Source: Escherichia coli (GTDB lineage Bacteria > Pseudomonadota > Gammaproteobacteria > Enterobacterales > Enterobacteriaceae). From it: a stretch of 64,000 nt of DNA. Positions 33,001-36,000 of this stretch are shown piece by piece. The position numbers were made by a program. The stretch is taken from the NCBI RefSeq assembly GCF_013122565.1, contig NZ_CP053258.1, one strand, 5' to 3'. The first letter of the stretch is position 1. Each line of letters begins with the position of its first letter.

Positions 33001-36000
33001 GCCAGCCAGCTATCCAGCCCCAGTGAGTCAAAATGCAGTTGTCCGGTAACATCCCGCGCTTTTCCAGTGAGCAAGCCTGGTTTCAGCGCAATAAAAGTGA
33101 TGGTGTGATCGGCGTTGATCACCGCGCCTGGCGTAGCGCCGGTTTCAGCCAGCAGGCCGGAAGGGATATCAACCGCCACAATCGGCGCAGGATGGGAATT
33201 AGTGTGGTCGATTAACTGGCTAATGGATTCACGGGGCGCTTGCTGCAAGCCGGTACCGAGCAGCGCATCAACAATCAGATCTACCGATTCGGGCCAGACA
33301 ATATTCGAAGCATGGATCTCGCCTCCCGCGTTTAACCATGCTTCGCGTGCCAGCGCGGCCTCTTCCGGCAACGGTTTGTCGCTCTCCTGGGACAACAACG
33401 TGACCTCAATGCCGACCGCTTTGGCCAGTCGCGCGACCACGTAGCCATCGCCGCCGTTATTACCATGACCGCACAGCACCAGCCAATAGCGGGCGTCAGG
33501 ATAAGCCGTGCGACACACCTGGAATGCGGCTTCGCCAGCGCGAAGCATCAGCTCATAGAGTGTGAGCCCCAGCGCATCTGCTGCCTCGCGTTCTCCGCGG
33601 CGGATATCGTCGGCGTGCCAGACGGTGTGTGGTATACTTACGGGGTTTTTCTTCATTGTATGGTCCGTCATGTCAGAGCCCCTCGATCTCAATCAGTTAG
33701 CGCAAAAAATTAAACAGTGGGGGCTGGAACTGGGCTTTCAGCAGGTAGGTATTACCGATACCGATCTCAGCGAGTCCGAGCCCAAACTGCAAGCATGGCT
33801 GGACAAACAATACCACGGCGAAATGGACTGGATGGCGCGTCACGGTATGCTGCGCGCTCGCCCCCATGAGTTATTGCCCGGTACGCTGCGTGTGATCAGC
33901 GTGCGGATGAATTACCTTCCTGCTAACGCCGCATTTGCCAGCACGCTGAAAAACCCCAAACTCGGCTATGTCAGCCGTTATGCGCTGGGCCGTGACTATC
34001 ACAAACTTCTGCGCAACCGACTCAAAAAGCTGGGCGAGATGATTCAGCAACATTGTGTTTCGCTGAATTTTAGACCGTTTGTCGATTCTGCGCCTATTCT
34101 CGAGCGCCCGTTAGCTGAAAAAGCTGGGCTCGGCTGGACAGGTAAGCATTCACTTATCCTCAATCGCGAGGCCGGTTCGTTCTTCTTTTTAGGCGAATTG
34201 CTGGTCGATATTCCTCTGCCCGTGGATCAACCAGTCGAGGAAGGATGTGGTAAATGCGTGGCCTGTATGACGATTTGCCCGACCGGTGCCATCGTCGAGC
34301 CATATACCGTCGATGCTCGCCGCTGTATCTCTTATCTCACCATCGAACTGGAAGAGGCGATCCCGGAAGAGTTGCGTCCGTTAATGGGAAACCGTATTTA
34401 CGGTTGCGATGACTGCCAGCTTATCTGCCCGTGGAATCGCTATTCGCAACTCACTACAGAAGAGGATTTCAGCCCACGTAAGCCGCTACACGCACCGGAA
34501 CTCATTGAGTTATTCGCCTGGAGTGAAGAGAAGTTTTTAAAAGTCACGGAAGGTTCGGCGATTCGCCGTATAGGTCACCTGCGTTGGCTGCGTAATATTG
34601 CCGTAGCCTTAGGCAATGCCCCCTGGGATGAAACGATTCTGGCGGCGCTGGAGAGTCGTAAAGGTGAGCACCCACTTCTCGATGAGCACATAGCGTGGGC
34701 GATTGCGCAGCAAATCGAGAGACGAAATGCGTGCATAGTCGAAGTGCAATTGCCGAAAAAACAGCGTCTGGTTCGGGTGATTGAAAAAGGGTTACCGCGT
34801 GACGCCTGATTCATCCACAGCTTGTGAATAAAAATAAAAACGCATTGCAATTCAAGACGAATAAAATCGTCAAGTGATCGACTCGACAAAACGAAATCTT
34901 AATTTTTAATTTATCTATCAATAGGTTAAAAAAATATTATTCACCGTGCGAAGTTTCTTTGAAATTAAGATTACGGCCTGAGGCTGTGGATAACTCTGTT
35001 TACAAGAGTTTGTCAGAGACAACAAAAACCAGCAATAACGCATCGCGTCGCTGTGGATATTTTATTGAGAGAAGAATTTGGAGCGGGAAACGAGACTCGA
35101 ACTCGCGACCCCGACCTTGGCAAGGTCGTGCTCTACCAACTGAGCTATTCCCGCTTGGGTGGTCTGTGCTTTACAGCACTTTCAAATTTTGGAGCGGGAA
35201 ACGAGACTCGAACTCGCGACCCCGACCTTGGCAAGGTCGTGCTCTACCAACTGAGCTATTCCCGCTTAATCTTCGTCTTTCGAACCGCTACTGCCTTGGC
35301 TGCCTTCACTCACCTTAGTCACTTACTTTTGTAAGTTCCCAAGGATTCGTTCAGTTGCCGCCTTGTCGCAATTCGAAATACTGCGATTGGGTGGTCTGTG
35401 CTTTGCAGCACTTTTCAAATTTTGGAGCGGGAAACGAGACTCGAACTCGCGACCCCGACCTTGGCAAGGTCGTGCTCTACCAACTGAGCTATTCCCGCGT
35501 ACTACTTAATTTTGCTTTCGTAATTTTCGCATTTCTGCGTCGTTACGGGAGGCGCATTATACGAGAAATCTTTCCCTCTGCAACCCCCCTAAAAAATTTT
35601 TTTTGAGTTTTTATCTCAAGTGCTGAAATTATCAGCAAGGCGTTCAATTTAGCGTCAAAATCACGCCGCCGCAAGTGGATTCCGACGCTTACGTGACCAG
35701 GAAAAATTTTACAGCTTGATAAAATGCTCGCGGTAGTAAGCCAGCTCCGCCACCGATTCACGGATATCATCCATCGCTTGATGCGTCCCCTGCTTGGTAA
35801 AGCCGTCGAGAATTGCCGGCTTCCAGCGGCGCGCCAGCTCTTTCAGGGTGCTGACATCGAGATAACGGTAGTGGAAGTAGGCTTCCAGCTCCGGCATGTA
35901 TTTAAACAGGAAGCGACGGTCCTGACCGATGCTGTTACCGCAAATCGGCGATTTACCCGCAGGCACCCACTGTTTTAAAAATTCGAGCGTCGCCAGTTCA

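Follow-up and report, generated by a model that had tools for sequence, protein, structure and literature searches.

The tandem tRNA-Gly array on the minus strand of a 64,000-nt stretch of Escherichia coli contig NZ_CP053258.1 (assembly GCF_013122565.1; this whole stretch is hereafter the window) raises the question of how an array of three identical genes (35079–35498) came to have two related spacers of such different length, the first being 157 nt (35266–35422) and the second 35 nt (35155–35189). The answer we reach, and to which we give a probability of about 0.9, is that the array is the glyV-glyX-glyY operon, that it is maintained as a tandem array by recombination, that its first spacer carries an ancient copy of the ERIC repeat, and that the short first spacer of strain K-12 is most probably a secondary loss.

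The region is the E. coli glyV-glyX-glyY operon, an already known array of low interest in itself; it is a textbook operon and a standard substrate of RNase E studies, and its tRNA-Gly(GCC) reads GGC and GGU. A megablast search with 801 nt around the array matched 5425 of 5426 complete E. coli genomes at 95–100% identity, with tRNA-Gly x3 and orn (oligoribonuclease) annotated under the matches. The K-12 MG1655 counterpart consists of glyV (b4163), glyX (b4164) and glyY (b4165), located between orn and yjeV/queG and separated by spacers of 36 and 35 nt, and in a five-way alignment the window and K-12 run collinear between orn and queG, apart from a single 121-nt block in spacer 1. The two operons thus share their genes, gene order, strand relation, neighbours, promoter, terminator, spacer 2 and identical tRNA sequences, and differ in spacer 1 (36 nt versus 157 nt) owing to this block, which is an ERIC element.

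ARAGORN, Rfam (tRNA, 69.1 bits for each gene) and the alignment to K-12 agree on the three genes, all on the minus strand: glyV, the first, at 35423–35498 (aligning to b4163), glyX, the second, at 35190–35265, and glyY, the third, at 35079–35154. The copies are 100% identical and encode their CCA ends, so that the initial annotation, which had placed three identical 76-nt genes on this strand, was exact in its coordinates. The repeat unit consists of one tRNA plus a spacer of ~35 nt (period 111–112 nt), and spacer 2 aligns to the first 36 nt of spacer 1 with one indel (GAAAAG in spacer 1 versus GAAAG) and one loop substitution (GCAA versus GUAA), a similarity too long to be due to chance. The repeated ~35-nt unit that had been described from the sequence is therefore real, the string quoted for it being spacer 2 as read on the plus strand, extended by one base of tRNA; what that description had overlooked was the remaining 121 nt of spacer 1, which is the ERIC insertion, and the identity of the operon. 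The 5' module of spacer 1 (35389–35422, minus strand), as delimited by the alignments, is made up of a AAAUUUGAAAA tract, a 5-bp hairpin with a GCAA loop (35398–35411) and ACCACCC; its sequence is homologous to that of spacer 2 and the same as that with which spacer 1 of K-12 begins. Spacer 2 (minus strand) has by alignment and fold a matching layout of a AAAUUUGAAA tract, a 5-bp hairpin with a GUAA loop (35166–35179) and ACCACCCAA. The short spacers thus begin with an A/U-rich single-stranded segment (AAAUUUGAAA), continue with a 5-bp hairpin closed by a GNRA loop, and end in a C-rich segment (ACCACCCAA), with a predicted fold of −7.2 kcal/mol. Single-sequence folds, from which the short-spacer structures across genera were taken, predicted a hairpin, on stems of other sequence, for most enterobacterial short spacers that were folded (GUGCU/AGCAC, GUAUC/GAUAC, UGGCU/AGCCA and AUGCC/GGCAU), and showed none in Kluyvera, Klebsiella and Erwinia.

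The insert in spacer 1 is a diverged ERIC/IRU element, an imperfect palindrome at 35266–35388 on the minus strand that is recognizable by its absence from K-12, an ERIC2 match, its alignment to other ERIC copies and its fold. Relative to K-12 it adds a net 121 nt, with boundaries that are ambiguous by AA (35268–35388 or 35266–35386), and its long, imperfect hairpin ends 2 nt before glyX. With primer sequences taken from PMC6066780, the ERIC2 site was matched at 19 of 22 positions at 35307–35328, the only such match in the 64 kb, and the ERIC1R site, counted by hand on the alignment, at 15 of 22, with mismatches that pair with one another across the stem. The insert aligned at 76% identity, across 88% of its length, with E. 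coli copies that carry both primer sites exactly, and in genomes lacking the insert the query still found a median of 7 places at 72–80% identity, with up to 12 per E. coli genome. All four of the paralogous places examined were intergenic (puuR-puuC, queA-acpH, yeiL-psuT and upstream of ybhI), and two of them carry both primer sites exactly; the gly copy could be aligned with them from one end to the other.

The gly copy therefore resembles the ERIC/IRU family in being a ~120–127 bp imperfect palindrome with a core matching the primer sites and several relatives per genome, in being intergenic yet inside a transcription unit, and in having a hairpin kept by compensatory change. It differs from the family in having tRNA genes of a single operon on both sides instead of protein-coding neighbours, in its divergence from the consensus (seen in the primer-site counts above and in paired changes of the central stem, CCUUGG/CUAAGG as against CCCCAG/CUGGGG in the other copies), and in its termini, which read AATCGCAG...GATTAA instead of TATAC...GTATA. 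Its ends pair (AAUC...GAUU); for E. coli the flanks read AA / TTAA, and for Salmonella and part of the Citrobacter they read TTAT; a clear TA duplication was not seen at these junctions. No family was matched in an Rfam search of the insert with E-values up to 1, nothing is annotated at the insert in RefSeq records, and a full-text literature search for ERIC together with "tRNA operon" gave no match, the main ERIC locus catalogues lying outside that search. In one strain, E. coli 2017.09.02CC (L008:767-932), the spacer 1 ERIC has a 9-nt tandem duplication (GCAGCCAAG twice), which brings the spacer to 166 nt.

How widespread is this element? Of the 5426 complete E. coli genomes, 1606 (29.6%) carry the insert, each at a single place on the chromosome, and 1501 of these 1606 copies are at least 99% identical to that of the window; the exact sequence occurs in O145 strain RM9872, and the carriers include O145, O111, and many enterotoxigenic and avian pathogenic E. 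coli isolates. The other ~70% of genomes, among them K-12, O157:H7 and sequence type 131 (ST131), lack it. We also surveyed other genera using one genome per species, a sample rather than a census, so that what follows holds among the matches listed; because the survey pattern (spacer + tRNA + spacer = 147 nt) also matched ordinary three-copy arrays in many Proteobacteria, the loci were resolved by local BLAST and parsing. An ERIC with the same junction (...CC(C)AA|UCGCAG...GAUUAA|GCGGG) and orientation was present at 81–98% identity to the window copy in several other taxa. It occupies spacer 1 in an Escherichia sister clade (97.5% identity; over 13 kb this clade and the window are 94% identical), in Salmonella enterica subsp. 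diarizonae (89%), in Klebsiella oxytoca (~83%) and in Buttiauxella massiliensis (~81%), and spacer 2 in Citrobacter youngae (~91%), Citrobacter sp. NCU1 (~93%) and Enterobacter asburiae (~86%). Three further arrays are arranged otherwise: Citrobacter sp. FP75 has the ERIC as the sole spacer of a two-copy array (~90%), Citrobacter sp. 18056 (L124) has near-identical ERICs in both spacers (~85%), and "Escherichia" sp. ESNIH1 (L054) has a full ERIC in spacer 2 (~87%) along with a 77-nt, internally deleted remnant in spacer 1. All these orthologous copies are closer to the window copy than is any E. coli paralogue (at most 80%). ERIC-free arrays were those of an Enterobacter metagenome-assembled genome, Pseudocitrobacter, Kluyvera, Siccibacter, Cedecea, Erwinia and Silvania. 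A few plasmid records matched as well, at 4 places for the gly spacer and at 1 for the gly-type ERIC; one of these, an ERIC-like match, lies on a 157,885-bp record of strain HCM-22C-2.

Comparison of the window with other genera showed the ERIC to be better conserved than the non-coding DNA around it. The ERIC copies in the gly spacers are 79–93% identical, as against 64–75% for the 210 nt upstream of glyV, 66–77% for the 269 nt downstream of glyY, and 45–74% for the 4-fold degenerate sites of orn in a codon-aware comparison; the whole orn coding sequence is 83–88% identical. RNAalifold applied to 12 orthologues returned a consensus hairpin of 40 pairs, 10 of which have changed on both sides, and 97.1% of the cells of this hairpin are paired. 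None of 500 column shuffles reached the observed values, and sliding the 3' partners lowered the pairing to 24–40%. The element folds at −43.2 kcal/mol (z = −5.7) on the tRNA-sense strand and at only −28.1 kcal/mol (z = −1.95) on the opposite strand, and its hairpin contains conserved G-U pairs, which together with the higher stability of the tRNA-sense strand points to constraint at the RNA level. Co-transcription of the ERIC, which we would expect, should place an extended hairpin between glyV and glyX.

These observations bear on the possibility that the spacer 1 ERIC is more than a passenger, and that selection maintains it as an RNA module of the tRNA-Gly precursor. Such a module could insulate processing or folding, let an RNase enter and so part glyV from glyX-glyY, give rise to a stable spacer-derived RNA, or modulate read-through into datA, the locus directly downstream. 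The conservation relative to flanking and synonymous sites, the compensatory pairs that no shuffle reproduced, and the G-U pairs with their strand-biased stability all speak for it, and there are precedents: in the reviews PMC2229807 and PMC3184786, ERIC hairpins are described as altering mRNA stability via RNase E in Yersinia, and PMC10710024 cites 3'ETS-leuZ as a functional tRNA-spacer RNA. The latter, from glyW-cysT-leuZ, and the internal spacers of metZWV, cited in the same source, are structured non-tRNA segments that a polycistronic tRNA precursor releases as it is processed, and the ERIC spacer resembles them; that the ERIC spacer might likewise survive processing, bind Hfq or pair with a small RNA is, by analogy, a lead only. 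The 3' region of K-12 glyY has itself been mentioned as a weak Hfq candidate (PMC10710024). Against the idea stand the ~70% of E. coli genomes and the several genera that do without the ERIC, and the failure of any Rfam family to match the insert. Moreover, the pattern of constraint may be general to ERIC copies rather than specific to the gly locus, as slow evolution with compensatory change was reportedly described for ERIC copies generally by Wilson and Sharp in 2006. Since most E. coli genomes lack it, the ERIC is dispensable, which stands in tension with its constraint. On balance we consider a selected module fairly unlikely, and we are a little more doubtful still of the fuller proposition that the hairpin is a functional, selected element of the tRNA-Gly precursor, one that several enterobacterial genera have retained over tens of millions of years.

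The copy number of the array was compared across the 5426 complete E. coli genomes, as variation between strains had been anticipated in the initial annotation; it exists, and is rare. Using a synthetic two-copy query and counting single-piece full-length matches, we identified 105 genomes with two copies and no ERIC. Another 26 have two copies with the long spacer kept, e.g., O111:H8 strain 7-27 20A and a series of eight near-identical bovine isolates. Four copies were found in at least two genomes (strains AGR5151 and AVS0935), only single-piece top matches being informative for the four-copy query. In total there are at least 131 two-copy arrays (~2.4%), four-copy arrays make up under 1%, and ~97% of arrays have three copies; a one-copy query was non-discriminating (two-copy genomes were joined to 100% coverage), and single-copy arrays lie outside these counts. 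A spacer-only query found 1–4 places per genome (median 2), with 10729 places in 5408 genomes and at most 18 genomes without a match; such numbers leave room for no more than a few dozen expanded arrays, and therefore fit the ~97% of three-copy arrays. Match labels reading "tRNA-Gly (x2)" were considered as a sign of two-copy arrays and rejected, since the loci concerned have three copies and the label merely reflects the reach of joined BLAST pieces.

Beyond copy number, spacer 2 of strain AREA_R505 has been converted to the sequence of spacer 1, and among the matches listed from other genera the long spacer is the first one, the second one or both. The copy-number variants, the spacer conversion and the shifting long spacer are what unequal crossing-over and gene conversion would be expected to produce, and they lend support to the amplification by unequal recombination that had been proposed from the related spacers. 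Unequal crossing-over and gene conversion would accordingly keep the array homogeneous, and would occasionally shorten or lengthen it. Published work agrees with this in outline, and the operon has been observed to duplicate under ciprofloxacin stress (PMC8811037).

With an array that can exchange its spacers, the age of the ERIC may be considered. One possibility is that the K-12-type short spacer is ancestral in E. coli, and that the ERIC is either a recent insertion of the MITE type (miniature transposable elements with inverted repeats) or an allele imported by recombination, which has since spread to 30% of genomes. The AA on both sides of the insert, the near-identity of copies within E. 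coli (at least 99% in 1501 of 1606 genomes) and the classification of the ERIC family as a MITE with TA-flanked termini (PMC3184786) would fit such an origin. However, the sister Escherichia clade, S. enterica subsp. diarizonae, four Citrobacter, K. oxytoca, E. asburiae and Buttiauxella carry this element with an unchanged junction and orientation; those copies are nearer to the window copy (81–98%) than are the paralogous ERICs of E. coli (at most 80%); and the gly-type ERIC has a single place per genome, and thus gives no sign of recent transposition. We regard this possibility as quite improbable. The simplest reading of these comparisons is one ancient insertion, which would have been followed by movement between spacers and repeated loss. 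Because several enterobacterial genera share this copy at this junction, the short spacer 1 of the K-12 type is most likely a precise secondary loss; that the loss in E. coli was precise follows from K-12 spacer 1 retaining the GAAAAG and GCAA variants of the ERIC-bearing spacer and not the variants of spacer 2. We suggest that the loss could have come about through a short gene-conversion tract templated by spacer 2, or through slippage across the palindrome.

Several points weigh against this account of an ancient ERIC in a recombining array. The direction of change, loss rather than gain, rests on outgroup parsimony and not on a mapped E. coli phylogeny, and the AA at both junctions could be read as the target-site duplication of an insertion. 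Some of the two- and four-copy assemblies could be collapsed or expanded repeats; that whole clonal series of near-identical isolates share a variant array argues against assembly error. Finally, that the ERIC is co-transcribed and forms its hairpin in ERIC-bearing strains is something we infer. As for the array itself, that it encodes a Y-RNA-like (YrlA) RNA instead of, or besides, plain tRNAs has next to no credibility and was rejected, as the match to Rfam RF02553 at 35102–35240 on the minus strand (40.3 bits, E = 7.8e-07) is a sub-threshold artefact, far under the family gathering score of 69 and combining glyX's 3' half with glyY's 5' half and leaving a 40-nt insert unaligned, which reflects only the tRNA-like module of YrlA, and all three genes are complete canonical tRNAs.

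The surroundings of the array are those of the K-12 operon. The putative promoter (35547–35583, minus strand), proposed from sequence and conservation, consists of TTGCAG (35578–35583), a 16-nt gap, TATAAT (35556–35561) and a G+C-rich discriminator, GCGCCTCCC, and is preceded by an A/T tract at ~35591–35613. The −10 box is embedded in a 20-mer, TCGTATAATGCGCCTCCCGT, that recurs without a mismatch in 24 fetched loci, representing at least nine genera (Escherichia, Salmonella, Citrobacter, Klebsiella, Enterobacter, Buttiauxella, Cedecea, Siccibacter and Kluyvera). A simple scan did not call this promoter because its −35 hexamer matches at only 3 of 6 positions, and within the array it picked out nothing resembling a promoter or a terminator; a promoter, PglyV-X-Y, has been shown experimentally upstream of glyV (PMC10950094). 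At the other end, a terminator or attenuator hairpin followed by UUUUU (35024–35028) lies at 35020–35067 on the minus strand (fold −14.3 kcal/mol, z = −2.8) and overlaps DnaA box 1 of datA (ATATCCACA, 35052–35060), and TglyV-X-Y has been described as overlapping this box (PMC10950094). The datA locus (34810–35078, minus strand) directly follows the third tRNA-Gly, and motif matches define its core (34823–34993, minus strand), with an IHF site, TAACCTATTGATA, at 34916–34928 and perfect DnaA boxes at 34985–34993 and 34823–34831, which are the only perfect TTATNCACA DnaA boxes in the window. A TTATCCACA or ATATCCACA box right after the last tRNA-Gly was also present in the Citrobacter, Salmonella, Klebsiella, Buttiauxella, Cedecea and Siccibacter loci, and the linkage of the tRNA genes to datA is therefore conserved between genera. 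The three tRNA genes would be transcribed from one promoter downstream of orn, and transcription would end at a leaky terminator overlapping the first DnaA box of datA. Read-through that starts at PglyV-X-Y lowers IHF binding at datA before replication initiation (Kasho et al., PMC10950094).

In K-12, the glyV-glyX-glyY precursor is a "direct entry" substrate of RNase E, whose major in vitro site lies 1 nt after glyY (PMC4191395); cleavage 3' of glyY requires an unpaired glyX-glyY spacer (PMC4191395) and the adjacent upstream glyX tRNA, not glyV (PMC9841416). By its sequence identity, the operon of the window would be processed by the K-12 scheme, and the position of the ERIC in spacer 1 would leave untouched the glyX-spacer 2-glyY module that RNase E uses. 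By general tRNA biology, RNase P would make the 5' ends, and exonucleases would trim the 3' ends to the encoded CCA.

The upstream neighbour orn (35709–36254, minus strand) was identified by its translation and by the RefSeq annotation of matching genomes. The complete genome of E. coli OHT76-1 (NZ_CP135244.1; L007) gave no match to orn or glyVXY, and only its unlinked glyW-cysT-leuZ was matched; as orn is regarded as essential, this lack of a match is odd and may reflect an assembly gap or a rearrangement. On the downstream side, the 17-codon open reading frame yjeV, which the annotations of K-12 and of most RefSeq genomes include, would fall at 34792–34845 on the minus strand to judge by its K-12 coordinates, in overlap with queG's 3' end. 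Close to its end, at 63497–63572 on the plus strand, the window holds a tRNA-Phe(GAA) gene.

For E. coli, the copy-number counts given here are a baseline for variation in tRNA-gene dosage at glyV-glyX-glyY. A 121-nt structured insert is present in this operon in ~30% of E. coli, and K-12, the strain used for all of the experiments on its processing and on datA read-through, is without it. If the ERIC hairpin were a selected element, it might direct or insulate processing of the precursor, be released as a stable spacer RNA, or tune read-through into datA, and in the last case a strain-variable repeat would be linked to the control of replication initiation. As this ERIC copy is unusually conserved and shows compensatory change, and yet is often lost, it makes a convenient natural test case for an RNA-level function of ERIC elements.

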